Source of the DNA: a virus
Direction: 5' to 3' (one strand)
UHGV virus genome: UHGV-0142834
DNA length: 13,224 nt
Below are positions 270-13,172 of the stretch, in pieces. The position numbers were made by a program, and so were the translations under genes. The notes below the pieces were generated by a model. The model ran no database searches. It was not told where the DNA came from and was given only the letters and a program-made list of their open reading frames with translations. Position 1 is the first letter of the stretch, and each line of letters starts with the position of its first letter.

Positions 270-1448
270 ATGGCTATAAGCGACACAAAACTGCGTACTA
301 TTTATGGTAAACCATATTCGGGCCCACAAGAAGTGGCTGATGCCGATGGCCTCAGCGTACGAATTTCACCGAAGGGGGTCATCCAGTTCCAGTACCGCTA
401 TCGCTGGCATGGCAAGCCTAATCGACTTGGGCTTGGTCGATACCCATCCCTGTCTTTGAAGGATGCCAGACAGATCACTGCTGACTTGCGAAAGCTCTAT
501 TTCTCAGGAACGGATCCACGCACCTATTTTGAAGAGAAGGTGGAGAACTCCATGACGGTCGCCCAGTGTCTCGACTACTGGTTCGACAACTACGTCTCTA
601 CAACTCTCAGAGAAAAGACCCAGGCACTTTACCGATCAACGGTTATGAAGCGCATGCATGACGCCTTTCCTAATCGTCCGGCATCTTCTATCACGGTTAA
701 GCAATGGGTTGACCTGCTTACCGAAGAAGAAAGAGATAATCCACGCCGAGCAAGGCAGGTGCTAAGTCAACTAAGATCAGCAATAAGTTGGTGCATGCGG
801 CGTCAGTTGATAGATAGTTGCGCAATTATGAGCATCCAACCAAGGGACTTCGGCTCCCGCGCTGAGGTAGGGGATCGGGTACTGTCGTATCACGAACTGG
901 CTAAGATTTGGCTTGCTATTGAAAGAAGCCGTGCGTCTACGTCAAATAAGCTACTTCATCAGATGCTTATGCTGTGGGGGGCGAGGCTCTCAGAGCTTAG
1001 GCTGGCAACAAAGACAGAATTTGACCTGCTGGACAACGTATGGACCGTACCGAAAGAGCATAGCAAGATGGGTAATGTTATCCGTCGTCCAATCTTCGAA
1101 CAAATTAAGCCTTTTCTCGAAAAGGCCATGACAACGTACAATGATGTTCTTTTCCCTGGAGAAGACATAAACAAACCGATCAGCATCGCTGCAGCCAACC
1201 GATTCGTAAATAGAATAAGGGGAGGGATGGATCTAGGTTACTGGCGAACACATGATTTCAGAAGAACGCTTGTTACACGTCTGTCCGAGATGAATGTCGA
1301 GCCTCATGTTACTGAGCGAATGCTCGGTCATGAACTTGGCGGGATAATGTCCGTGTACAATAAACACGACTGGATAGAGGCTCAGCGCAAAGCTTATGAG
1401 CTTCACGCTGATAAATTGTTCTGGCACATCAGGAGCATTTCTGGTTAA
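270..1448 (+). CDS. int: Tyrosine site-specific integrase, P4-type (N-terminal arm-binding-like domain plus C-terminal catalytic domain)
   Basis: 392 aa ORF with ATG start. N-terminus (GKPYS..DGLSVRISPKG..FQYRYRWHGK..LGLGRYPSLSLKDAR) resembles the P4/IntS-type integrase N-domain. C-terminus has tyrosine recombinase motifs (HDFRRT, LGHELGG..SVYNKHDW with the catalytic Tyr). Confidence 0.9.
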   Translation: MAISDTKLRTIYGKPYSGPQEVADADGLSVRISPKGVIQFQYRYRWHGKPNRLGLGRYPSLSLKDARQITADLRKLYFSGTDPRTYFEEKVENSMTVAQCLDYWFDNYVSTTLREKTQALYRSTVMKRMHDAFPNRPASSITVKQWVDLLTEEERDNPRRARQVLSQLRSAISWCMRRQLIDSCAIMSIQPRDFGSRAEVGDRVLSYHELAKIWLAIERSRASTSNKLLHQMLMLWGARLSELRLATKTEFDLLDNVWTVPKEHSKMGNVIRRPIFEQIKPFLEKAMTTYNDVLFPGEDINKPISIAAANRFVNRIRGGMDLGYWRTHDFRRTLVTRLSEMNVEPHVTERMLGHELGGIMSVYNKHDWIEAQRKAYELHADKLFWHIRSISG

Positions 1449-1620
1449 CGCCACCGTTAAGAATCCACCCTTCAACAGCTTCACGAAGGTATGATTTTGG
1501 GTGGGTTCTGACTGGCTTCGGAAATCCGTGCCGTTTGGTATAGTTCCAGATTGTCTGACGTGATGAAACACCGAGCTTGTTCATCACTTCTTTCTCAGGA
1601 ATCAGGCTGGTATCGGTCAT
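1429..1620 (-). CDS. xis: AlpA/Xis-like excisionase or small DNA-binding regulator
   Basis: 63 aa, ATG at 1620 with GGAG 9 nt upstream. The pattern LIPEKEVMNKLGVS..TIWNYTKRHGFPKPV..EAVEGWI matches the AlpA/phage excisionase HTH signature (..FPKPV....W...EVE.W). Its 3' end overlaps the int 3' end convergently by 20 bp. Confidence 0.7.
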   Translation of the reverse strand: MTDTSLIPEKEVMNKLGVSSRQTIWNYTKRHGFPKPVRTHPKSYLREAVEGWILNGGVNQKCS

Positions 1621-1720: not shown

Positions 1721-1936
1721 TTAATGTTTGTCAGTGAATGGTTTCTCCATCTCCATTAATGCCTTATTCATCTCCTTTCGTAACTCTATAGCCATCCTGA
1801 CGGCTTCAACCTGAGCAGGATGTCGGTTAATTGCTGGAGAATATCGTCGGGAGCGAAGGATTGAGAAAACAAAGATAATGCAAGCAACTATCTGAATTGC
1901 ATTGCATGTTATTGATACAATGTGAATTGCAGCCAT
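1721..1936 (-). CDS. Hypothetical small membrane protein (N-terminal hydrophobic helix)
   Basis: 71 aa ORF, ATG at 1936 preceded by a G-rich stretch. N-terminal segment IVSITCNAIQIVACIIFVFSIL is hydrophobic. Same strand as the rest of the early-left operon. Confidence 0.4.
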   Translation of the reverse strand: MAAIHIVSITCNAIQIVACIIFVFSILRSRRYSPAINRHPAQVEAVRMAIELRKEMNKALMEMEKPFTDKH

Positions 1937-1959
1937 CTACTACCCCCAAAAAACCTCCA

Positions 1960-2127
1960 TCAGGCGGCTGGGTGTTCTTTCAGTTCTTCAATTCGAATAT
2001 TGGTTACGTCTGCATGTGCTATCTGCGCCCATAGCATCCAGTGGTCATAGCAGTCGTTGATGTTCTCTGCTTCGATAACTCTGTTGAATGGTTCTCCATT
2101 CCATTCACCTGTGACTCGGAAGTGCAT
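1960..2127 (-). CDS. Hypothetical small phage protein (55 aa), not on the supplied ORF track
   Basis: Hand-translated: MHFRVTGEWNGEPFNRVIEAENINDCYDHWMLWAQIAHADVTNIRIEELKEHPAA. ATG at 2127..2125 preceded by GGAG with a 7-nt spacer. Lies between the two flanking minus-strand genes without overlap. Confidence 0.45.
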   Translation of the reverse strand: MHFRVTGEWNGEPFNRVIEAENINDCYDHWMLWAQIAHADVTNIRIEELKEHPAA

Positions 2128-2199
2128 TTATCATCTCCATAAAACAAAACTCGCCGTAGCGAGTTCAGATAAAAGAAATCCCCGCGAGTGCGAGGATTG

Positions 2200-2484
2200 T
2201 TATTCATTGCCGATATTCACCTTTATCGCGTACACCTTTACCGGTTTATCGCCGAAGTGAGGATGTGTGATTGTCTTGATTTCATATCCGTCATACGGGA
2301 CGTCAATTCTGCGGCTGGAATCGTCGCGCTTCGGATATCCCTTTGTGATAATCAGGCGGTCATACTCCCGGAACATAATTCGCTTATTCCAGTAGTCATT
2401 ACACAGGCGATACTCTTCCGTTTTCTCTCCGCGAATCATGGCATCGAAGTATTCACCTTTGACGGCAAGTTGCAGGTTAGCCAC
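2200..2484 (-). CDS. Hypothetical protein, possibly ASCH/PUA-like (DUF3850-like) fold
   Basis: 94 aa ORF with a GTG start at 2484..2482 preceded by AGGAGG with a 7-nt spacer. The N-terminal pattern (LAVKGEYFDAMIRGEKTEEYR) resembles ASCH/DUF3850 proteins; this assignment is from memory and weak. Confidence 0.55.
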   Translation of the reverse strand: MANLQLAVKGEYFDAMIRGEKTEEYRLCNDYWNKRIMFREYDRLIITKGYPKRDDSSRRIDVPYDGYEIKTITHPHFGDKPVKVYAIKVNIGNE

Positions 2485-3031
2485 GGTTAACCTCCTGAGG
2501 CGGTTCTGGTAGATGCATCCAGTGGGTTACTCCGTCAATTGGTTCATCGTCGTCGTACTCCAATGCGGCTATATAGAACCCGTCACGACGAGAATAAGAA
2601 ATCCCGGACATTACAATGCCATCCGAAACAACAATAATGTCACCCGTTTCTTCCGGCATTCGCTCACTACAGCTTATCCAACCACCCGGAGTTACCGGAG
2701 AGTTGCCCGATAGTGCATTCTGCTCCAGTGATGCTTTCACAAACCACGCAGCCTGAACTATTACGCCATGAATCCAGCGCAAATCGGCATCACGATTTTC
2801 TTTTTTCATTTTTTCGCCACTTAAAGCCTTGCTTACGTGACTTTTTACCAGATTTTCGTGTAATTCTTTTGCTTCTTCAATTGTGAAACCACCAGGCAAA
2901 TTTGGCGCTTCTGCTTCCAGCGATGCCAGAGCAATTTCATAAGCCCGACGCTCAATATTGTCTCGGACGTCCAGGCTGCCTATACGCTCTCTGATTTCTT
3001 TAATCAGTTCTTTGTCGGTTAAAGTGGTCAT
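2477..3031 (-). CDS. Phage protein with C-terminal DUF551-like domain (Ea22-family type)
   Basis: 184 aa, ATG at 3031. C-terminus GGWISCSERMPEE..DGFYIAALEYDD..VTHWMHLPEPP matches the DUF551 signature common in lambdoid early-left genes. Confidence 0.7.
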   Translation of the reverse strand: MTTLTDKELIKEIRERIGSLDVRDNIERRAYEIALASLEAEAPNLPGGFTIEEAKELHENLVKSHVSKALSGEKMKKENRDADLRWIHGVIVQAAWFVKASLEQNALSGNSPVTPGGWISCSERMPEETGDIIVVSDGIVMSGISYSRRDGFYIAALEYDDDEPIDGVTHWMHLPEPPQEVNRG

Positions 3032-3041
3032 AAATTATGCC

Positions 3042-3278
3042 TCAGTTGTATCCGATTGGATTAACCGCAACAATAACGCCATCCGCGAACAAATCTTTAA
3101 TGAGGTGTTCGCTCGGCTCGCCTTTTTCGTACTCTTCAATAAGGTAAGTGTCTCCATCCTCATTGATATAAACTGGAAGAATGGAACCGTTGATGAAGTA
3201 GGTTCCGTTGTTATCGAGGATTTTTGCCTCGGCGATTTGTTTTTTGGTAAAACGATCTTCTTTTTTCAAAGTTGCCAT
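3042..3278 (-). CDS. Hypothetical phage protein (78 aa)
   Basis: Start moved to the internal ATG (MATLKKEDRF...) at 3278..3276, which is preceded by AAGGAG with about a 7-nt spacer. The longer track ORF (from 3350) would overlap the upstream ORF in another frame. Confidence 0.55.
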   Translation of the reverse strand: MATLKKEDRFTKKQIAEAKILDNNGTYFINGSILPVYINEDGDTYLIEEYEKGEPSEHLIKDLFADGVIVAVNPIGYN

Positions 3279-3279
3279 A

Positions 3280-3468
3280 TCACTCTCCTTTAGTGCGCAA
3301 ATGGTTTTTCCAGCGGTTTTGCGCCGCGCTGGGCTTTTTGCAAAAACCACAATCCATCATCCCGTAATATTTCATCAACCCCATCCGTCGGTTGCTGAGT
3401 CTCACCCACTGCCAGACGCCAGGAGCGTTTCTACGAACTAACAGAATCTTTGCTTTACGGTTTTTCAT
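3280..3468 (-). CDS. Hypothetical small basic protein (62 aa)
   Basis: ATG at 3468 preceded by AGGAGAG with an 8-nt spacer. Its TGA stop (3280..3282) lies 1 nt upstream of the next gene's ATG (3278). No recognisable motif. Confidence 0.35.
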   Translation of the reverse strand: MKNRKAKILLVRRNAPGVWQWVRLSNRRMGLMKYYGMMDCGFCKKPSAAQNRWKNHLRTKGE

Positions 3469-3640
3469 CGCTTTGCTCTCCTGCGTCTCTTTGCTGCTCG
3501 TCGTGCCGCTGCAATACCGGTATGGCGGCGCTTTGGTGCCGGGATGATGTTGTCAGCCATCAGGACATGTGGCTTTGCAATTAGCGCAGAAGCCCAAAAA
3601 CGAGTCGGGTACGGTAACAAGTCGATACATGCCACACGCA

Positions 3641-4129
3641 TTACTCACCTCCTTTGATGCGAATGCCTGTTGCAATGCTGTTTATGATGCTGTCAGTGCA
3701 TGGGGTAGAAAGCTGGGCATCTCCAGCAATTTTCATGACCTCAACATCTGCATATCGAATACCGAGGTGTATCAGACCGGCTATGCCTGACTTAAGCCGA
3801 GCATTTTCCATAAATAGAACTTTTGCCCGCTGTTTTTCTGCTTCAAGCTCAACACGCAGCTTCCCTACCGTTAGCGCAATTTCCTCGTTTTCCTGGTCGC
3901 GGCGTTTGATGTATTGCTGGTTTCTTTCCCGTTCATCCAGCAGTGCCAGCACGGTTTCTGGTCCGGTCAGAAATTTGAAGGCGTTGAGCGCATCAATATC
4001 CACACCGTAATCTTTAAGTTCCTGTTCACTTAACAAGTCATCATCAGCTGGCAACATTAACAGGCGTTCCATTGCTGGAATTGCACGTTCCGCCACCTCA
4101 CGCAGTGCCTGGTAATTAATTTCGCTCAC
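3641..4129 (-). CDS. Ead/Ea22-like coiled-coil phage protein (tentative)
   Basis: 162 aa ORF, GTG start at 4129..4127 preceded by AAAGGAGG with a 7-nt spacer. The GTG overlaps the upstream gene's TGA (GTGA coupling). N-terminus [11 protein letters not shown].. and the coiled-coil middle recall Ea22-like proteins; family call is from memory only. Confidence 0.6.
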   Translation of the reverse strand: MSEINYQALREVAERAIPAMERLLMLPADDDLLSEQELKDYGVDIDALNAFKFLTGPETVLALLDERERNQQYIKRRDQENEEIALTVGKLRVELEAEKQRAKVLFMENARLKSGIAGLIHLGIRYADVEVMKIAGDAQLSTPCTDSIINSIATGIRIKGGE

Positions 4130-4557
4130 TGGTTGCCTCCTTTGCGAAGCTGGGCAGCAAAGTCACGGATAGTGTCATCAAGGTCTGGGCACAACAGATG
4201 GTCAGCAAACATCTCTACCACCTGCGCCCGTACTTCAGCCAGGAAAGCATCGGTGGCTGGGGTTTCAGTAACATCATCTTCCCATTCGCCAAACTCCTCA
4301 CGACAAAAGTCATTAAATTCCTTCTCAGATTGCTTAAGCGAGGTATTTTCTGCAGCCATCTTCGCGCATTTAGCCTCAAGGTTATCAATCGTGATTCCAG
4401 CAGAACGACACTCCCGCAACGCCGTTTCCAGTTTTGATTCAAGCTCACCGAACTTACGCACCAGATATTCAGCGTTTGTTTCGTTAACCTTTAAATCTCG
4501 TGGGATGCATTTACCTTTCAGAAATCCATCCATCCCAATTAGTGACATTTGTTTCAT
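4126..4557 (-). CDS. Hypothetical acidic coiled-coil phage protein (143 aa from the ATG at 4557)
   Basis: The track ORF starts with GTG at 4575. The ATG at 4557..4555 overlaps the TGA of the upstream 54-aa ORF (ATGA coupling) and has GGAG/GGGAAG upstream. Start codon choice is uncertain. Confidence 0.6.
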
Positions 4558-4718
4558 TTCTTCCCACTCCGCCACATCGCATTCAGATATTTGTTTTGAT
4601 TCACTGACGGAAAAGAATTTCTCTTAAGTAATTCCTCTCTCGATGGCATTGGCTTTACGCGCTGGCGAATAATCATTTCTGCCGGAAGAATGCCGGGATT
4701 GTATGCAAGTCCTCTCAT
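4554..4718 (-). CDS. Hypothetical small protein (54 aa), not on the supplied ORF track
   Basis: Hand-translated: [57 protein letters not shown] at 4718..4716 preceded by AGAGGA with an 8-nt spacer. Its stop overlaps the downstream ATG (ATGA). Confidence 0.4.
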
Positions 4719-4734
4719 GGTAAATTCCTCTTTG

Positions 4735-5049
4735 TTAATTTATTCGTATGCCTGCTCTTTCTTCATCGAGTTTTTTTAGCTTGTATCGCATAGCTCTTAC
4801 TGAATAAATTGAGCGGCAGGTTGCAATTGCTATTTCTTCTGCGGAGAACTTACCGAAAAGTGATACTTCGGCTCTTGTCCATCGTCTTCCACGAAGTCGG
4901 CTAACAATGTCAGCTCCAATCCTTGTTGCTTTCGCCATTACTGCTTTTTCAGTCCTTTCCAGTTTTTCAGCGATAACTTCAACTGGCATTGTCGCCGCCA
5001 CTTCGCGCAAGAAATCGACTTCCCATTTCTCCCATGGAGTCTTTTTCAT
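4735..5049 (-). CDS. Small putative DNA-binding protein with two tandem GcrA/Myb-like HTH-like repeats
   Basis: 104 aa, ATG at 5049. Internal duplication visible by eye: [40 protein letters not shown] versus [35 protein letters not shown]. The RBS is weak. Confidence 0.55.
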
Positions 5050-5060
5050 AGGCGATACCG

Positions 5061-5543
5061 TTATTTGATAAGAAGTGAAGGTTTCCCAACCTTGAGTTGA
5101 GCGCCTGGGATATTTATTCCTGCTTTTAGTTGGTGCTTGATTGCCAACTTGTCGGCTTTAATTGTCGTTTCAAACTCAACGTATTCAGGAGGAAGGGCGC
5201 TTGAGTCGATGATTTCTACAGTTTCTGACGGTTTGCGGATTGTTACCTGGTGAATACCTGCTCTAATCTTTTTCTTGCCAACCATTTCAAGCGATGACGC
5301 TATATATGATTTGATGCTGTCAATCTTATTTTGAATTACTGCGGCTCGCTCATTCAGTGACTTTGCCTCTTCCTTGAGGCGTTCAGCATAACCAGATTCA
5401 TTTTTAATAATGGAAAGAAGTTGCTCTATTTTATCGATAAATTCTCCTTCCATGCCTTCTATTGTGTCAGCAATCATCTCTGGCTCTAAATCTGAATCCA
5501 TCAATTTTGCGTATTCATTGGCAATTTCATACAGTTTGCTCAC
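5061..5543 (-). CDS. Siphovirus Gp157-family protein, a recombination-module accessory protein
   Basis: Track ORF begins at a TTG placed directly after GGAGG, which is implausible. The GTG at 5543..5541 has GGAGG at a 6-nt spacer, giving a 160-aa product. N-terminal LYEIANEYAKLMDSD.. and C-terminal ..PPEY...IPGAQLKVGKPSLLIK match my recollection of the Gp157 family pattern; it sits directly downstream of recT. Confidence 0.6.
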   Translation of the reverse strand: MSKLYEIANEYAKLMDSDLEPEMIADTIEGMEGEFIDKIEQLLSIIKNESGYAERLKEEAKSLNERAAVIQNKIDSIKSYIASSLEMVGKKKIRAGIHQVTIRKPSETVEIIDSSALPPEYVEFETTIKADKLAIKHQLKAGINIPGAQLKVGKPSLLIK

Positions 5544-6429
5544 TGGCAACCTCCAGTTTCGCTTTGCATTCTGCGTAAATGGCTTGTACGTTCTGCTGCA
5601 ATTTCATTCCAGATGTCAGGCGATATGCTTCTGCAAAATATCGCTTCAAATCATCCATGTTTTCTGCCTGAGCCATTTCATCACAAAGAAGTTGTGCTTT
5701 TTCCATAATTTCCTGCTGGCGTTTCCGTTCATCTTCGCGGATATCTTCCTCTGATTTGTGCGGCATAACTGGTTCCTGATGCATACCTTCATCTTCGTTA
5801 AGCAGGTGAATGGCATTATCCAGTCGCTGGGCTTTAGGCCAGTATTTGCTGGCGCGTTTAACTATTGTTTTACGCGCCATCTCTTCCCAGAATGTCTTCC
5901 ACGGTCCATTCTTTGCCTTGCTCGTTGCTTCCACAGCTTTAATTTCTGCCAGACTCATTTCTTCAGTGAGGTAGTCACCATCTGCTGTTTTAACCGTACA
6001 ATAACCACCAACAATAGAGCCTCGCTCACCAAATGCGTTGTATTTGTGGGTTGGTGCTGAATCAAGGCCGTTTGATTCATAGGTGTCGTTTGAGTACACC
6101 AGTTTGCATTGCCCCCACTTAATTGATCCTGTCGACTGTGCAAGGTGAAGTAATCCCATATAGCTGATATCAAGGCAAACCATGCCGTCGCGCGGAACTA
6201 GATAAGCAAGTTTGCTGGCCGGGTTTAAGGTGATGCCGATCGCCGCAACATTGATGATGGCGTTCTGTGCGCTGGTTGGATTTGCCAGTGCCGTTTTAGC
6301 CAGGTAATCGTTTTTCTGGAAATACTGAATTGCAAACTGGCTTTCCTTAGCCCATGTCACCGTCTGTTCAGTCAATGCTCCGCAGAATAACTGCTCCTGC
6401 TGTTTAACGAATTCAACGATATTGCTCAT
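5527..6429 (-). CDS. recT: RecT-family single-strand annealing recombinase
   Basis: 300 aa, ATG at 6429 with GGAG at an 8-nt spacer. The motif NGPWKTFWEEMARKTIVKRASKYWP closely parallels Rac RecT NGPWVTHWEEMAKKTAIRRLFKYLP. The ATG overlaps the upstream gene's TGA (ATGA). Confidence 0.85.
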   Translation of the reverse strand: MSNIVEFVKQQEQLFCGALTEQTVTWAKESQFAIQYFQKNDYLAKTALANPTSAQNAIINVAAIGITLNPASKLAYLVPRDGMVCLDISYMGLLHLAQSTGSIKWGQCKLVYSNDTYESNGLDSAPTHKYNAFGERGSIVGGYCTVKTADGDYLTEEMSLAEIKAVEATSKAKNGPWKTFWEEMARKTIVKRASKYWPKAQRLDNAIHLLNEDEGMHQEPVMPHKSEEDIREDERKRQQEIMEKAQLLCDEMAQAENMDDLKRYFAEAYRLTSGMKLQQNVQAIYAECKAKLEVASEQTV

Positions 6430-6737
6430 GCTGCTTCTCCAAAAATGTGTCTGCGCTTGAATATTGCGAAGGCATATTCAGCCTTAACTCTTTCGGTTAT
6501 TGCATCCCAGAACCATTCAGCGGCTTTTTCCTGATAGTTACAGTCATCATCTTCCAGCCAGTCGATAGCGTCCTTAGTGTGTTCATCTGGTTTATATGAG
6601 CGAAGCATTTCGCTTATTGGGTCGCAACGTTTGCAGAGGCGATCAACTTCACTGTTGATTCGTTCGTAATCATCATCGGTAAAACTTGCGATGATTTGCG
6701 ATATTTCACGCTTATCATTCAGAGTCAGAATCATCAT
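6426..6737 (-). CDS. Hypothetical acidic protein in the gam position (possible host-nuclease inhibitor analogue)
   Basis: 103 aa, ATG at 6737 (or 6734) preceded by AGGAG with a 5-nt spacer. Rich in Asp/Glu and Trp (DDDYER, DWLEDDDCNYQEKAAEWFWD). Translationally coupled to recT. No similarity to lambda Gam noted by eye. Confidence 0.6.
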   Translation of the reverse strand: MMILTLNDKREISQIIASFTDDDYERINSEVDRLCKRCDPISEMLRSYKPDEHTKDAIDWLEDDDCNYQEKAAEWFWDAITERVKAEYAFAIFKRRHIFGEAA

Positions 6738-6822
6738 CTTTCTCCTGTTCTTTGTGCTGATTGAGCATTTTGTTCATCTGACGAATGAATTCTTCGTCTG
6801 ACCAGTTATCTGTAAAACTCAT
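6715..6822 (-). CDS. Small ORF (35 aa) in the kil position, not on the supplied ORF track
   Basis: Hand-translated: MSFTDNWSDEEFIRQMNKMLNQHKEQEKDDDSDSE. Its ATG (6822..6820) overlaps the TGA of the CIII-like gene (ATGA), mirroring the lambda cIII-kil overlap. Its 3' end overlaps the start of the 103-aa gene in another frame. Confidence 0.35.
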   Translation of the reverse strand: MSFTDNWSDEEFIRQMNKMLNQHKEQEKDDDSDSE

Positions 6823-6989
6823 GGACGGACTTGTTGTTTCAAAATATCCCAAAGCTTTTCGAGCAAACTTTTCATTCTTGGTTGTTTAAAGTCTGCTCCG
6901 GTTAAAATATTTTTTCGTGAATGCTGTACCGATAAAATCGGGTTGAAAGGGCGAACCGATGCCGCCCCTGCAATAGCGAACTGTTGCAT
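6819..6989 (-). CDS. CIII-like protein (candidate FtsH inhibitor, 56 aa)
   Basis: Start placed at the ATG 6989..6987 with AAGGAG at a 6-nt spacer; the track ORF starts further up at a TTG. N-terminus MQQFAIAG resembles lambda CIII MQYAIAG, and the C-terminal SLLEKLWDILKQ resembles the CIII amphipathic helix. Comparison is from memory. Confidence 0.45.
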   Translation of the reverse strand: MQQFAIAGAASVRPFNPILSVQHSRKNILTGADFKQPRMKSLLEKLWDILKQQVRP

Positions 6990-7050
6990 AGGATGCTCCT
7001 TCTGTTTGATTGCATAACGAAAACGCCTCGAGTGAAGCGTTATTGGTATG

Positions 7051-7079
7051 CATATAAAAAGGCCCTCACACTGGAGGGC
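7051..7079 (-). terminator. Intrinsic terminator for leftward transcription (tL-like), between the accessory cassette and the cIII-like gene
   Basis: Minus-strand hairpin GCCCTC-cagtgt-GAGGGC (7062..7079 on +) followed on the minus strand by CTTTTTATAT. The stem is only 6 bp. Confidence 0.45.
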
Positions 7080-7183
7080 AAAGAAGATTTCCAATAATCA
7101 GAACAAGTCGGCTCCTGTTTAGTTACGAGCGACATTGCTCCGTGTATTCACTCGTTGGAATGAATACACAGTGCTTACTCGTA

Positions 7184-7654
7184 CTAATAAAATACCCAAT
7201 TTTCTGTTTCTTGGTTGTGCCCAAAGTTATATTCAATATCTGGTGTTGATGTATCAATATTCTTCATCCCATCAACAAGAGTTGATACAACAGCCAAATC
7301 TTGTTTGATTCTCATTAAATGGTATTTCTTCCGGCGCAATAAACTCTCAATGGCAAGTTTCTTCGTTGGGAATGCAAAAGATCTTTCTGCATTTTTTGCT
7401 ACTTTCTTAATTGCATATCTATTTCTCCTTTGTTTCCATTCCTGTAACCACTGATTTGGTGCTGGTTTAAAATTAACAATCCAATGCGCAGGAACCAACC
7501 ATGCATAATGCTCTGTCTGATGAAAAGCTATATATTGAAGTGCGAATATTTTTATCCCATCTTCTTCAACTGTCGCTTGGAATCTCCAGAAAACAGGCAT
7601 TCCATCATGTTCAGTTTCTGATTCAGGAAAAGGTACGCTCCATGATTTTGTCAT
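7184..7654 (-). CDS. Hypothetical protein (156 aa), accessory cassette gene 2
   Basis: ATG at 7654 preceded by GAGGTG with about a 5-nt spacer. Trp-rich with a basic C-terminal half; no motif I recognise. The local sequence is AT-rich. Confidence 0.65.
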   Translation of the reverse strand: MTKSWSVPFPESETEHDGMPVFWRFQATVEEDGIKIFALQYIAFHQTEHYAWLVPAHWIVNFKPAPNQWLQEWKQRRNRYAIKKVAKNAERSFAFPTKKLAIESLLRRKKYHLMRIKQDLAVVSTLVDGMKNIDTSTPDIEYNFGHNQETENWVFY

Positions 7655-7717
7655 ATCTCACCTCAAATAATTCAGTGCAGTGTTTATTCTGTTGTTAGTG
7701 CCAAAAATAAAGGCCGA

Positions 7718-8341
7718 CTATGCGGCCTCGGAAGGAAGTCCAATCATCTTATTCAAATCTTCTACCCGTAAAGCAGGAAGTGCTGTACTTGCTTTATCTG
7801 CTTCTTTTGGTAGCAATTCTTTGCTTTCAGGCCAAACTTCAATAAGTCGCTTAACTGTTGTGACTGAGTTCAAAGCACCCCATACATTTGATTCGATATC
7901 CTTTTTCAAGGCTTCAAGGTTTTGTTGCAATGCGCAGATTTCATCAAACCTTTTTGTTATTTCGTGTTCTGCGTCAAACATGCACTTATCTTTGGTTGGA
8001 GTAGGGAGAAATATATCTTCGCCATTGCCGTCTTTCCCATATGAATGCCATCCAACCCTTCTGCCAGATACAGTCAGATAAATTGAAGTAGAACGAAAAT
8101 CGTATGAGTAAAATGAACATCCCATCTTTTCAAGTTCTTCACTTATAGCTACCAACTTGGATGATAACTGATCCACTTCCTCAGTTTTCTTTTTACCGCC
8201 AAACGCAATAACTCTGGCGTCAAGTGCAAGCTGGTTCTTTAACTTTGTTACTTCTTCAAGTTCAGTGAAAACCCCAGACTTAATTAAAGCGTTACGAGCG
8301 ATTTCCTCTTTCATTCTCGTAGTTAAGCGGATTGATGACAT
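7718..8341 (-). CDS. Hypothetical protein (207 aa), accessory cassette gene 1
   Basis: Start placed at the ATG 8341..8339 (MSSIRLTTRMKEE..) preceded by GAGAGG with a 7-nt spacer; the track's longer ORF would overlap the end of N. Coiled-coil-like N-terminal half; no motif I recognise. Confidence 0.65.
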   Translation of the reverse strand: MSSIRLTTRMKEEIARNALIKSGVFTELEEVTKLKNQLALDARVIAFGGKKKTEEVDQLSSKLVAISEELEKMGCSFYSYDFRSTSIYLTVSGRRVGWHSYGKDGNGEDIFLPTPTKDKCMFDAEHEITKRFDEICALQQNLEALKKDIESNVWGALNSVTTVKRLIEVWPESKELLPKEADKASTALPALRVEDLNKMIGLPSEAA

Positions 8342-8922: not shown

Positions 8923-8963
8923 AATATACCTACAGGTAAAACCCATGTCTATACCTGTAGGTA
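8923..8963 (-). promoter_or_regulatory. pL-like promoter with two overlapping dyad operators (OL)
   Basis: On the minus strand: -35 TAGACA (8946..8951), 17-bp spacer, -10 TATATT (8923..8928). Dyad operators TACCTACAGGTA (8927..8938) and TACCTGTAGGTA (8952..8963) overlap the -10 and -35. A third, split dyad TTACCTG-N10-CAGGTAA lies at 8984..9007. Confidence 0.5.
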
Positions 8964-9020: not shown

Positions 9021-9049
9021 TTGATATAAAAAAGCCCGCTTTGCGGGCT
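9021..9049 (-). terminator. Intrinsic terminator ending the cI-membrane protein transcript
   Basis: GC hairpin AGCCCGC-ttt-GCGGGCT (9033..9049) followed on the minus strand by TTTTTTTATAT. It sits 12 nt downstream of the membrane-protein stop at 9061. Confidence 0.7.
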
Positions 9050-9060
9050 GAAAGGAGATG

Positions 9061-9357
9061 TCAGAAGCTATTTGGATTGCTTGGCCATTGCGGCAATTTT
9101 GATTCTACTGGGGTGTGTTTGGGTTTGAGTCCGTTTAAGTAGTCAAGGCGCTCAATGGCGCATTTATACATAGCAATCTGCTCTGATGACATGTCGTCGT
9201 ATGACATGCCTTTGAACTTTTTAATTATCGATTCTGCCTCATGTATAAGATTCTTCTTCCTCATGAGTTCAGCTGTATGCTTAGAGCTTACAGGAGATAA
9301 CTTTGCCCATATGAAGCAGATGATTACAACAGCGACTACTATGCCGGGTATAAACAT
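9061..9357 (-). CDS. Small single-pass membrane protein downstream of cI (rexB/sie slot); candidate superinfection-exclusion or defense protein
   Basis: ATG at 9357 gives a 98-aa product starting MFIPGIVVAVVIICFIWAKL (TM helix) followed by a charged soluble tail. An alternative TTG at 9375 overlaps the cI stop. Co-transcribed with cI and followed by a strong terminator. Confidence 0.6.
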   Translation of the reverse strand: MFIPGIVVAVVIICFIWAKLSPVSSKHTAELMRKKNLIHEAESIIKKFKGMSYDDMSSEQIAMYKCAIERLDYLNGLKPKHTPVESKLPQWPSNPNSF

Positions 9358-9371
9358 TTGCTGCTTTATCC

Positions 9372-10058
9372 TCAAACTTTTGGCAGATCGTCCTGGTCTA
9401 CGTACCTGGTGTGTTTCACAATAGCTGAAACAAAATGCATTTTATCAACTTCTTCAACAGGAAGAGTGATTGGGCGGTGATCACTGTTTATGCTACTAAA
9501 CTGATAATCACCGTCTCTTGTTTTGTTCATGATCTTTATCATGTTGTGACCGTCTTTGGTCCTTACAAAGACTTCATCACCTGGATGTACTGGCGTATTT
9601 GGTTCAATAACAACATATTCTCCTGACTGAATCCTTGGCCACATGCTGTCACCCTTAACCTTCAGACCGTAAGCATCTTTATCGCCGCTGTAGATGCTTA
9701 ACCAACCGGATCTGAATTCAATCATATCCACTGAGCCATCAACTCCCAAAACGGCTTCACCAATTACCGGAACAAAACCCGCACGAACGTTACCCGCAAA
9801 CTCAAGATGGTCCGTAGCTCCAGCTTTACCATCTGCAAGCATGTCCATCCATCCGCGTGGGAGATTAAAAGATTTTTCAATTAGTTCCATCATATCGTCA
9901 GCAATGCGTTTTTTTCCGCTTTTTCCTTCCGGATACAGCATTCTGGAAACGTATGATGGTTCCCTTTCTATTCGACGAGCCAACTCTGAGGCCTTTCCAT
10001 TACAGAATCGGTCTCTTATCTCTATCAGCCTTAGTCGTCTTTGTTCGTATTTATCCAT
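9372..10058 (-). CDS. cI: CI-type prophage repressor (N-terminal HTH, C-terminal LexA-like S24 peptidase domain)
   Basis: 228 aa, ATG at 10058. HTH region NGKASELARRIEREPSYVSRML. C-terminal KVKGDSMWPRIQSGEYVVIEP..GDEVFVRTKDGHNMIKIM contains the S24 Ser/Lys dyad context. Divergent from cro with operators between them. Confidence 0.9.
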   Translation of the reverse strand: MDKYEQRRLRLIEIRDRFCNGKASELARRIEREPSYVSRMLYPEGKSGKKRIADDMMELIEKSFNLPRGWMDMLADGKAGATDHLEFAGNVRAGFVPVIGEAVLGVDGSVDMIEFRSGWLSIYSGDKDAYGLKVKGDSMWPRIQSGEYVVIEPNTPVHPGDEVFVRTKDGHNMIKIMNKTRDGDYQFSSINSDHRPITLPVEEVDKMHFVSAIVKHTRYVDQDDLPKV

Positions 10059-10513: not shown

Positions 10514-10795
10514 ATGGGTACTATTGCAACTAAAAGCAAGAAAGCGGCTCGCATCGAGTCAGCCTTGCTGAACAAACTGGCACTGATGGGGCAGAAGACA
10601 TTCGCTCGAGCAATGGGGGTTCCTGAATATCAGGTAAGCCGATGGAAGAATGGTTTCTTCTCGCAGGTAAGCATGATGCTGGCTGTTCTGGAATACGGAA
10701 TCGAAGACGATGAAATGGCTGAGCTGACTAAGCGGCTTGCCAATTACCTGACAAAAGAAAAAGCCCCGAAGAACGGCGAATTCTTCGAGGCCTGA
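10514..10795 (+). CDS. cII: CII transcriptional activator (lambda CII-like)
   Basis: 93 aa. RIESALLNKLALMGQKTFARAMGVPEYQVSRWKNGFFSQVSMMLAVLEYGIEDDEMAELTKRLANYL parallels lambda CII RIESALLNKIAMLGTEKTAEAVGVDKSQISRWKRDWIPKFSMLLAVLEWGVVDDDMARLARQVAAIL. Confidence 0.85.
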   Translation: MGTIATKSKKAARIESALLNKLALMGQKTFARAMGVPEYQVSRWKNGFFSQVSMMLAVLEYGIEDDEMAELTKRLANYLTKEKAPKNGEFFEA

Positions 10796-10829: not shown

Positions 10830-10991
10830 ATGACAAAACGTCGTAAGAAATACCAGGAAAAAGAAGAGATTCGACACCCTGATTCACCTGAGGGATTAGT
10901 GGTAGCCGCAGCAAATAACAGGGCGTTCGCAGAGCGCCTTGTTGGTGTTTACAGACTAGCCAAAGCAGGAGTGAAACATGGGCGTCGTTAA
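10830..10991 (+). CDS. Possible small basic ORF (53 aa) between cII and O
   Basis: Hand-translated: [57 protein letters not shown] at a 6-nt spacer before the ATG. Overlaps the O start by 14 nt and the proposed pO -10, so it may be non-coding. Confidence 0.25.
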   Translation: MTKRRKKYQEKEEIRHPDSPEGLVVAAANNRAFAERLVGVYRLAKAGVKHGRR

Positions 10992-11799
10992 GTTAGCTGA
11001 TTACAGGCCTCAACTGGAGGTCGTGGAGCATCGCGTGGCAGATACCGAAGATGGTTTCATGCGCGTTGCTAACGAGATTACTGACAGTCTGCTGATGGCT
11101 GATTTAACCGTCCGGCAGTTGAAGGTGATGCTCGCTATCATGCGCAAGACATACGGATTCAATAAGCCGATGGATCGACTCACAAACACGCAGATAGCAG
11201 CCATGACAGGTATTCATCACACTCATGTTTGCGCTGCCAAGCGCCAGCTTATCGAGCGTAAATTCCTCATTGCTGATGGCGTGAAAATCGGAGTGAACAA
11301 GGTGGTTTCTCAGTGGATTAGCCAGGACAGCTTAACATTAGCTAAAACAGCTAATAAAACATTAGCCAAGTCGGCTAATGGGTATAAGCCAAGTCAGCTA
11401 AACACAAAAGACAATATACAAAAGACAATAAATACAAATACCCCCTTACCCCCTAACGGGGGTGGCGATGGGCAGGTTAAACCTGAACGTCGCAAGGCAG
11501 AACGAATCGACTACGAATCCTTCCTGAACGCCTACAACACCGAAGTCGGTGACAGACTGCCACACGCTGTTGCGGTCAACGAGAAACGCAAACGCCGCCT
11601 GAAGAAAATCATCCCGCAACTGAAAACGCCAAACGTGGACGGTTTCAGAGCGTATGTCAGGGCGTTTGTGCATCAGGCCAAGCCGTTTTACTTCGGAGAC
11701 AACGACACGGGCTGGACAGCTGATTTTGATTACCTGCTGAGGGAAGATTCGTTAACGGGAGTACGGGAAGGGAAGTTTGCAGACAGGGGGATTGCATGA
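10978..11799 (+). CDS. O: Replication initiation protein, lambda O-like N-terminal domain
   Basis: 273 aa, ATG at 10978 with AGGAG at a 7-nt spacer. [53 protein letters not shown] parallels lambda O N-domain ..ADLTKRQFKVLLAILRKTYGWNKPMDRITDSQLSEIT. Contains internal iterons. Confidence 0.85.
11318..11445. repeat. Candidate replication origin: four 17-18 bp iterons with internal dyad symmetry followed by an A-rich tract, inside the O gene
   Basis: ttagccaggacagcttaa (11318..11335), ttagctaaaacagctaa (11338..11354), ttagccaagtcggctaa (11362..11378), taagccaagtcagctaa (11385..11401), then acacaaaagacaatatacaaaagacaataaatacaaata. Same layout as ori-lambda within O. Confidence 0.6.
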
Positions 11800-13172
11800 A
11801 ACAGGATATCGAAGCGAGCGTTATCGGTGGCCTGCTGATTGGTGGATTAACACCAACTGCCAGTGACGTTCTGGCAACGCTTGAGCCGGAAGCGTTTTCA
11901 ATTCCGCTCTACCGGAAAGCCTTCGAGGTTATCCGCAAGCAGGCGCGAAACAGAAATTTAATCGACGCGCTGATGGTTGCCGAGGCGTGCGGAGAGGAGC
12001 ATTTCACGTCAATCCTGATGACCAGCAAAAACTGCCCGAGTTCCGCAAACCTGAAGGGATATGCCGGAATGGTCGCGGATAACTATCACCGCCGTCTGGT
12101 GCTGGAAATCATGGATGAAATGCGTGAACCAATTCAGAGCGGAACCATCGACGCATCGAGTCAGGCGATGGATGAACTTGTAAAGCGTCTTTCAGCCATC
12201 AGAAAGCCCCGTGACGAGGTTAAACCTGTACGGTTAGGGGAAATCATAACTGACTACACTGACATGCTTGACAGGCGTCTGAGGAACGGAGAAGAGTCAG
12301 ATACCCTGAAGACCGGAATCGAAGAACTTGATGCTATCACCGGAGGGATGAACGCGGAAGACCTGGTGATAATAGCTGCTCGTCCTGGTATGGGGAAAAC
12401 CGAACTGGCGCTGAAGATTGCCGAAGGCGTTGCAAGCCGTGTTATTCCTGGTTCTGACGTCCGGCGCGGAGTGTTGATTTTCTCGATGGAAATGAGCGCA
12501 TTGCAGATTGCAGAGCGAAGCATTGCCAACGCCGGGAGGATGTCGGTTAGCGTGCTACGAAATCCTGCATCGATGGATGACGAAGGCTGGGCGCGCGTTG
12601 CTAACGGCATGAATCAGCTTGCGGATTTGGATGTATGGGTAGTCGATGCATCGCGGTTATCGGTCGAAGAAATACGCTCAATCGCAGAACGGCACAAACA
12701 GGAAAATCCAAACCTGTCACTCATCATGGCGGATTATCTTGGCCTGATTGAGAAGCCGAAAGCAGACCGCAACGACCTCGCAATTGCTCACATCTCAGGA
12801 AGCCTTAAGGCGATGGCGAAAGACCTGAAAACGCCTGTTATCTCCCTAAGTCAGCTTTCGCGCGATGTTGAGAAGCGACCAAACAAACGCCCGACAAACG
12901 CAGATTTGCGTGATTCAGGAAGCATTGAACAGGACGCAGACTCAATCATCATGCTCTATAGGGAAGCGGTATATGACGAGAACAGTAGCGCCGCGCCATT
13001 TGCTGAAATCATCGTGACGAAAAACCGTTTTGGCTCGCTTGGTACGGTTTACCAGCGGTTCTGCAACGGACACTTTGTTGCATGTGACCAGGATGAAGCC
13101 AGACAGATTTGCACAGCATCAAATGCACCCGCTGCACGTGGCAGGCGATATGCACAAGGGGCTGACGTATGA
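11796..13172 (+). CDS. Replicative DNA helicase, DnaB family (phage-encoded)
   Basis: 458 aa. The ATG overlaps the O stop (ATGA). Walker A context [18 protein letters not shown]. Downstream DnaB-like motifs ([38 protein letters not shown]). Confidence 0.9.

Follow-up and report, generated by a model that had tools for sequence, protein, structure and literature searches.

The DNA analysed here (the window) is a stretch of 13,224 nucleotides (nt) from the virus genome UHGV-0142834, and its minus strand carries a chain of small genes, several of them under 60 amino acids (aa), which is our subject. From the start of a cIII-like gene at 6989 to the end of a gene for a 94-aa protein at 2200, 14 minus-strand genes succeed one another through 13 joints of -23 to +16 nt, in agreement with a sequence-only reading of this DNA, which had described a chain of tightly abutting, co-directional genes. 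The same reading had proposed four short open reading frames (ORFs) as missed by its ORF track, which a length filter of 60 aa would by itself explain, and all four are open at the positions it gave, with ATG starts and TGA stops:

6819..6989, minus strand: 56-aa CIII-like protein (PHROG 550, E = 1.3e-21, residues 1-56)
6715..6822, minus strand: orf35, a predicted helical, acidic micro-protein of 35 aa (phrog_17766, 5e-16, and the N-terminus of phrog_2123), in the slot of P22 arf
4554..4718, minus strand: 54-aa DUF2737 protein (Pfam PF10930, 2.6e-31)
1960..2127, minus strand: 55-aa orthologue of Orf55 (lambdap35; phrog_676, full length, 1-55 of 55, 2.7e-39)

The region is very probably the delayed-early leftward (pL) operon of a lambdoid prophage, in which the cistrons are packed together and the four short frames are genuine phage genes.

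Five of the 13 joints are overlaps of 4 nt (-4, of the ATGA or GTGA type), the others being -1, -8, -17, -23, +1, +10, +11 and +16. The overlaps listed in the sequence-only reading, one of them on the plus strand, have exactly the coordinates it assigned, including the one it had given as merely possible (3465-3468):

6819-6822, minus strand: ATGA, cIII-like/orf35
6426-6429, minus strand: ATGA, orf103/RecT
4554-4557, minus strand: ATGA, DUF2737/EaE-like
4126-4129, minus strand: GTGA, EaE-like/Ea22
3465-3468, minus strand: ATGA, orf58/orf62
11796-11799, plus strand: ATGA, O-like/DnaB-like; HK544 annotates the same overlap

To these can be added a TAATG at 3641 (-1) and overlaps of 8 nt at 2477-2484, 17 nt at 5527-5543 and 23 nt at 6715-6737. 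A Shine-Dalgarno sequence of the GGAG type stands 5-12 nt upstream of most starts. In other systems, overlaps of the -4 and -1 classes have been shown experimentally to couple translation by termination-reinitiation (PMC6728339, PMC10666635), and translational coupling at the corresponding joints of the window may reasonably be inferred from the geometry of the overlaps. The earlier description of the chain as translationally coupled thus keeps its geometric basis and fails at one end, where Orf55 follows the 94-aa gene after a spacer of 72 nt that contains two tandem terminator-like hairpins (2147..2198, minus strand, from a consensus scan). Since this gene lies behind a hairpin-bearing gap and has its own Shine-Dalgarno sequence, we regard it as uncoupled.

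The overlaps by themselves are a limited argument. On the minus strand between 1900 and 7100 we counted the [AG]TGA sites that have an ORF of 30 codons or more on each side, and compared the count with 500 dinucleotide-preserving shuffles. The real sequence has seven such sites and the shuffles have 1.74 on average, with seven or more in 1 of the 500. Five of the seven are overlaps of the list above and the other two belong to spurious, out-of-frame ORFs. The overlaps are therefore enriched, but the count is only modestly above that of the shuffles, which tells against resting the case on it, and they prove no individual short ORF: with 1.7 sites arising by chance and two spurious ones in the real sequence, we dropped ATGA overlaps as sufficient proof. 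The short ORFs are taken as genes because of their conservation in relatives and not because of the overlap count.

For this purpose up to 80 related loci per ORF were taken from IMG/VR, and the substitutions in the annotated frame, expressed as the ratio of non-synonymous to synonymous polymorphism (pN/pS), were compared with those in the other frames. Variable sites were also sorted by codon position (first/second/third):

Orf55: 37 DNA variants, pN/pS 0.036, other frames 2.6-3.9, variable sites 3/2/18
DUF2737: 50 DNA variants, pN/pS 0.065, other frames 1.6-3.9, variable sites 5/10/22
cIII-like: 15 DNA variants, pN/pS 0.02, other frames 0.13-6.1, variable sites 1/1/9
orf35: 22 DNA variants, pN/pS 0.23, other five frames 0.52-11, variable sites 10/4/21 (chi-square p = 0.002)

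Taken over the small genes compared, the other sense-strand frames give ratios of 0.7-6.5. The frame and the start of all four are kept in the relatives and the substitutions concentrate at third codon positions, so that the conservation of reading frames across related prophages, which the sequence-only reading had offered as a check, speaks for coding (pN/pS 0.02-0.23). The stop/start overlaps are kept as well, including the orf35, DUF2737/EaE-like and orf62 junctions; in the case of orf62, pN/pS is 0.18 and 79 of 80 relatives retain the ATGA, whichever of two upstream genes precedes it. On the other side of the balance, the IMG/VR relatives are close and not independent, and the pN/pS values are for that reason descriptive rather than formal tests. 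As judged from these comparisons, all four short ORFs are genuine, conserved coding genes under purifying selection. They are also already known, being covered by lambda Orf55, DUF2737, PHROG 550 and Kapi1_014: the exact proteins of all the small ORFs are public, named only 'hypothetical protein', 'DUF2737 family protein' or 'prophage protein', and NCBIfam gave no meaningful match for any of them.

Two of the four are assigned without difficulty. The 54-aa protein matches the DUF2737 profile with 107.7 bits against a cutoff of 25, its residues 1-52 lying on positions 1-52 of 53; its identity is 96% with HK544 gp29, a protein described as HK97 gp38-like, and 75% with P22 orf56. A search for functional literature on DUF2737 found none beyond one incidental mention. 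The 55-aa protein shares 96% identity with lambda NP_597778.1 along its whole length (55 of 55 residues) and is called in SCU-124 by the Prokaryotic Genome Annotation Pipeline (PGAP). As in lambda, where it is the last gene of the exo-xis region, it stands at the end of the operon by the excisionase gene; the window differs in having a 71-aa ORF between Orf55 and an excisionase gene (xis) of the AlpA type. For lambda Orf55, modelling and nothing firmer has suggested a fold like that of T7 Gp2 and a role at RNA polymerase (PMC8614690), and a genome-wide screen by CRISPR interference left it untested (PMC10695390). The intervening 71-aa ORF (1721..1936, minus strand) has a strongly hydrophobic N-terminus and matches phrog_15342 over its full length; SCU-124 has no such ORF at this position.

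The setting of these genes is that of a lambdoid prophage, a mosaic of the HK140, mEpX1 and HK544 types. The whole window matches 673 phage records at 90-98% identity by megablast, among them HK544, HK140, Kapi1 and many phages converting their hosts to Shiga toxin production. To lambdoid phages and prophages its identity is 95-98%. Positions 1900-7700 match 4164 of 5426 complete E. coli genomes piecewise, with no more than 74% found in a single place, as is typical of a lambdoid mosaic, and the gene order is the same in annotated relatives (including HK544, mEpX1, Kapi1, SCU-124 and JX2). Upstream of the chain, a consensus scan found the signals of a leftward operon:

8951-8923, minus strand: pL-like promoter, TAGACA-17-TATATT
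7729-7710, minus strand: terminator-like hairpin after the Nmad5 gene
7079-7062, minus strand: terminator-like hairpin, upstream of the cIII-like gene

The pair at 2198-2147, already described, comes from the same scan. The likeness to the pL operon of lambda lies in the order of its parts (N, terminator, cIII, recombination module, ea/exo-xis accessory genes, Orf55, xis), in a lambda-type N that is 92% identical to lambda N, in the cIII leader and Orf55, and in dense packing with overlapping stops and starts. The differences are as clear. Lambda has the order cIII-kil-gam-bet-exo-exo-xis region-xis, whereas the window lacks kil; in place of Gam, Bet and Exo it has RecT and a Gp157/MuGam-like protein; its accessory genes (DUF2737, EaE-like, Ea22, DUF551) are P22/HK97-like; and its int lies on the opposite strand, with an excisionase of the AlpA type. 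The HK140-type recombination module has been described as SAP-4 plus MuGam (PMC12315714), and the module of the window is of this type, a SAP-4 RecT with a MuGam-like protein.

The 56-aa protein had been called CIII-like, a name that its locus, leader, N-terminal motif and PHROG 550 uphold and that both Pfam models of CIII do not. The approximately 50 nt upstream of 6989 are nearly those of lambda, which has the start context AAGGAGCA..ATGCAA as well. The features concerned are:

6990..7041, minus strand: cIII leader, nearly identical to that of lambda, with the hairpin AACGCTTCACTCGAGGCGTT (scan) and the Shine-Dalgarno sequence AAGGAG, in the context AAGGAG-N-ATGCAA
7062..7079, minus strand: terminator-like hairpin GCCCTC-cagtgt-GAGGGC, then CTTTTTAT (consensus scan); mEpX1 annotates a terminator at the homologous position

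The lambda-type leader and start context fix the ATG at 6989 as the start, and PGAP, which calls the same 171-nt coding sequence in strain JX2, agrees with the leader alignment on this ATG over the TTG of a 91-aa version. That longer version (6819..7094, the mEpX1 annotation) was rejected: it spans the terminator hairpin, in relatives its extension contains in-frame stops or gives way to unrelated sequence, and the pN/pS of that extension is 0.83. Relatives have a different hairpin at the spot of the 7062..7079 terminator. Comparison with them places a mosaic joint (7042..7094) exactly between the terminator and the constant, lambda-like cIII leader, the terminator being either of the GCCCTC/GAGGGC type, as in the window, or of the GCCGCC..GCGGC type, as in lambda and Kapi1.

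Whether the protein acts as CIII is less settled than its coding status, and several results weigh against it. It has no match to Pfam PF02061 (Lambda_CIII) or PF08134 (cIII) even at E <= 10, while the positive controls match these models at 1.5e-30 (lambda), 4e-15 (HK544) and 2e-30 (HK97-type); BLASTP gives no match to the CIII of lambda, HK544 or P22; hhalign with canonical CIII is limited to residues 1-21, with 34% probability; and in the MAFFT alignment a 12-residue insertion interrupts the stretch matching residues 14-37 of lambda CIII, which are the essential ones. It is therefore conceivable that a different small protein has replaced most of cIII at this locus and is not a functional CIII, that is, not an inhibitor of FtsH; we hold this to be unlikely, while granting it real weight. 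Against it stand, besides the shared locus and lambda's own leader and start context, an N-terminal MQxFAIAG motif (M-x-x-A-I-A-G in lambda and HK022 CIII) and a C-terminal (L/W)DIL-Q--P motif common to the 56-aa protein and lambda CIII, the small size, and the match to PHROG 550, which canonical CIIIs match as well. Residues 37-54 are confidently predicted to form an amphipathic helix, with a hydrophobic moment of 0.62 as against 0.72-0.83 for the C-terminal helix in canonical CIIIs; it aligns with that of lambda only if the 12-residue insertion is allowed. Further, a CII that would need protection is encoded in the window, and the protein is almost invariant, the same in 28 of 29 intact copies. 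The sole non-synonymous change is the window's own G54V: codon 54 (6828..6830) encodes Val here, whereas the other 28 intact copies all have Gly.

The two CIII classes described by Kobiler et al. 2007 (PMC1838920) correspond to PF02061 and PF08134, and we treat the 56-aa protein as a putative third, uncharacterised CIII sequence class. It differs from lambda and HK022 CIII also in its neighbour, orf35 following it directly instead of kil. A CII protein being encoded in the same window, we propose that the 56-aa protein probably inhibits FtsH and so protects CII.

The shortest frame, orf35, is the one whose status as a gene can be most readily questioned. It has no Shine-Dalgarno sequence in the window; PGAP skips it in both RefSeq genomes inspected (JX2 and SCU-124), where the identical ORF is present; its conservation is limited to the first 28 or so codons, the tail varying with the downstream module as if it were whichever frame comes next; it ends inside the following gene; and in Salmonella phage SPN9CC a different-frame ORF is annotated over the long form. 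Such features, which count against our assignment, would fit a conserved non-coding linker at a mosaic module boundary, or a relay that hands ribosomes from cIII or kil to the recombination module by way of a functionless peptide. We find this improbable. The frame is intact in 80 of 80 IMG/VR relatives, including alleles at least 30% different in nucleotides (as divergent as MSIADAWTDDAFIRLMQDML), and its pN/pS and codon-position bias, given above, set it apart from the other five frames. The ATG falls exactly on the upstream stop (ATGA) in three unrelated contexts, the preceding gene being Kil, the long CIII or an unrelated one of 55 aa. In divergent alleles W7, D9, F12, I13, R14 and M16 are retained within a core of about 28 residues, MS[FI][TA]D.W[ST]D[ED].FIR.M...L.Q.KEQE, for which a single helix is predicted at residues 9-29 (predicted local distance difference test score, pLDDT, up to 88), with an acidic, disordered tail after it. 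The exact sequence is on at least 1000 public contigs, a search with the family alignment retrieves 139 database proteins at E <= 0.01, and the identical 35-aa protein is annotated in phage Kapi1 as Kapi1_014.

Taking orf35 as a gene, then, its family has members of 35 aa before orf103/RecT, of 51-60 aa in Salmonella and Citrobacter, and of 52-56 aa before Erf (HK97 gp42.1, HK022 p38 and HK544 gp34). Together with Kapi1_014, the phrog_2123 forms (these three and Sf6 gp30) share with it the N-terminal core MSFTDNWSDEEFI and the ATGA overlap with the upstream gene, and they differ in length (52-56 aa), in an unrelated tail and in their place upstream of Erf modules. PHROG labels phrog_2123 'recombinase', and a search for an experimental basis of this label found none. 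A 45-aa version of orf35 starting at TTG (6715..6852) was discarded, as the sequence upstream of the ATG is wholly different among three genomic contexts. In SPN9CC (2317..2600), the annotated 62-aa 'recombinase' SPN9CC_0013 overlaps, in another frame, an unannotated 60-aa homologue of orf35 that is joined by ATGA to the long cIII; either ORF may be a mis-call, or both may be translated.

The position of orf35 invites comparison with P22 Arf, which helps recombination and is non-essential for it (PMC12315714). The slot is occupied by kil-arf-erf in P22 and by cIII-orf35-orf103-RecT in the window, so that both genes stand between kil or cIII and a single-strand annealing gene; both encode small acidic peptides with a [F/W]SDEEFI motif, and one member of the orf35 family, P0137, is named 'accessory recombination function protein' in the database. 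The differences are that orf35 matches neither the Arf hidden Markov model PF17585 at E <= 10 nor phrog_2445 (P22 Arf, as control, gives 1.9e-35 and 5.2e-32), that it is paired with RecT and not with Erf, and that it belongs to PHROGs 17766 and 2123. Pairwise BLASTP with P22 Arf aligns 6 of 12 residues at E = 0.005, and hhalign of the family profile with Arf gives 53% probability over a likeness confined to about 21 columns; these weak links detract from an Arf assignment. The resemblance is thus only suggestive of homology. We do not file orf35 as a member of the Arf family, and an Arf-like accessory of the RecT/Gp157 module would be our best functional guess for it. More broadly, the family may be a widespread, largely unannotated micro-protein with a 28-residue core that is predicted to be helical, swappable tails and a start fused by ATGA to the upstream gene. 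That it serves as a portable Arf-like accessory of annealing recombinases of the RecT and Erf types, or ties the expression of recombination modules to the translation of a lysogeny or host-takeover gene, is a speculation that we advance with low confidence.

The sequence-only reading had also suggested that a Kil-type inhibitor of division might be found among these proteins. Small early-left proteins of lambdoid phages do include Kil (PMC3961180), and several proteins of the window are strongly charged (isoelectric points of 11-12 for DUF2737, orf58 and orf62, and of 4.3 for orf35), so that a new, unrelated toxic peptide is conceivable among small proteins whose functions are unassigned. The searches gave a different answer: among ten small ORFs there is no match to Pfam Lambda_Kil (PF06301) or DUF5444 (PF17519) or to PHROGs 2055, 3924, 2461 and 2394, whereas Kil of lambda, of HK97-type phages and of P22 all match the Kil models, and tblastn of the three Kil types against the whole window produced only noise (best E = 0.046, inside the DUF551 gene). 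SCU-124, Kapi1 and HK544 have kil between cIII and their homologue of orf35. In the window and in the other 29 loci with the long CIII, cIII directly abuts orf35, so the kil slot is empty; the gene that overlaps the end of the cIII-like gene is orf35, whose homologue lies downstream of kil in those three. We therefore consider it very improbable that one of these small proteins is a host-takeover factor of the Kil type that blocks cell division.

The remaining genes of the chain and its flank, following orf35, are:

6426..6737, minus strand: orf103, 103-aa acidic protein (phrog_3486 full length, 5.7e-59; hypothetical protein in PGAP)
5527..6429, minus strand: RecT-family single-strand annealing protein (Pfam RecT, 2.5e-33), in agreement with the annotation of relatives
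5061..5543, minus strand: Siphovirus Gp157/Mu Gam-like protein (Pfam Sipho_Gp157, 1.6e-37), with a GTG start and a 17-nt overlap with RecT
4735..5049, minus strand: orf104, 104-aa protein (phrog_11492, phrog_323), identical to WP_000753555.1 in JX2
4126..4557, minus strand: 143-aa EaE/HK97 gp37-like protein, 79% identical to HK544 gp28 from residue 1, with an ATGA start overlap
3641..4129, minus strand: 162-aa Ead/Ea22-like protein (Pfam Ead_Ea22, 9.1e-32), with a GTGA start overlap
3465..3641, minus strand: orf58, 58-aa basic protein (phrog_13831 full length, 1.2e-40; pN/pS 0.39), with a TAATG start overlap
3280..3468, minus strand: orf62, 62-aa basic protein (phrog_1380 full length, 1e-40)
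3042..3278, minus strand: orf78, 78-aa protein (phrog_8930, 9.7e-52), starting 1 nt after the orf62 stop; exact sequence public
2477..3031, minus strand: 184-aa DUF551 protein (Pfam DUF551, 2.3e-14)
2200..2484, minus strand: 94-aa ASCH-like protein, 90% identical to WP_169063415.1 ('ASCH domain-containing protein'), with a GTG start and an 8-nt overlap

The 54-aa DUF2737 gene lies in this order between orf104 and the EaE-like gene, and Orf55, the 71-aa ORF and the AlpA-type excisionase gene come after the 94-aa gene. orf103 shares 23 nt with orf35 and an ATGA with RecT and has no Pfam or NCBIfam match; it could be a partner, so far unrecognised, of the RecT/MuGam-like recombination module of HK140 type. 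In mEpX1 the homologue of the Gp157 protein carries the annotation 'Mu Gam-like end protection'. The 4-nt overlap between DUF2737 and the EaE-like gene is annotated in HK544 too, and this junction is conserved in relatives. The Ead/Ea22-like protein, preceded by the strong Shine-Dalgarno sequence AAGGAGG, aligns with lambda Ea22 from residue 1. The 94-aa protein has no Pfam match at E <= 0.001. Over the stretch 3280..3641, many relatives have a different 58-aa ORF upstream of orf62, which begins with the same MKNRKAK, contains KRKPTASQNRRKK where orf62 has KKPSAAQNRWKN, and looks like a tandem paralogue.

Outside the chain, family scans and the annotation of relatives give the following map:

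270..1448, plus strand: int
7184..7654, minus strand: 156-aa ORF, preceded by the Nmad5 gene and followed by the terminator upstream of cIII; homologues hypothetical in PGAP
7718..8341, minus strand: Nmad5 (nucleotide modification associated domain 5) protein (Pfam, 2.4e-70), directly after the lambda-type N
10514..10795, plus strand: Phage_CII protein (Pfam scan)
10978..11799, plus strand: O-like replication initiator
11796..13172, plus strand: DnaB-like helicase

On the plus strand int is followed by cro and then by the last three genes of the list, and the upstream part of the minus strand has cI, N, Nmad5 and the 156-aa ORF in this order. The 156-aa ORF has no Pfam match. Immediately downstream of cI, in the slot of lambda rex, lies an ORF of about 98 aa with a hydrophobic N-terminus (9061..9375, minus strand), which has no Pfam match either and is followed by a strong terminator-like hairpin at 9049..9033. 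The AlpA-type excisionase gene (1429..1620, minus strand) converges on int with a 20-nt overlap at 1429..1448, as it does in HK544. An Rfam scan of the whole window gave no family at the gathering score.

With the anatomy, conservation, purifying selection and family assignments of these genes in hand, we infer N-dependent readthrough, coupling and every biochemical function, and the operon would work as follows. Transcription would start at the pL-like promoter near 8923-8951 and pass through the lambda-type N gene, and antitermination by N, as in this phage family, would allow readthrough of the hairpins at 7729-7710, 7079-7062 and 2198-2147. The packed cistrons would be translated partly by ribosomes that, having ended one cistron, reinitiate at its ATGA, GTGA or TAATG overlap with the following one. 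The 56-aa protein would most likely be an FtsH-inhibiting lysogeny factor that protects CII, and the 35-aa acidic peptide, a predicted single helix, would most likely serve the RecT/Gp157 recombination module as an accessory. Orf55 would be translated from its own ribosome-binding site.

None of this departs from the known lambdoid architecture: the genes are real, ordinary and already known. The importance of the finding lies mainly in annotation quality, since four genuine genes in 5 kb of a common E. coli prophage escape an ORF filter set at 60 aa, and orf35 is skipped also in the two RefSeq (PGAP) records that were inspected. Two minor leads come out of it, a putative third CIII sequence class that occurs without kil, and a micro-protein in the position of Arf that is found with recombination modules of both the RecT and the Erf type. 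Neither would change the understanding of lambdoid phages unless experiments were to reveal an unexpected activity.

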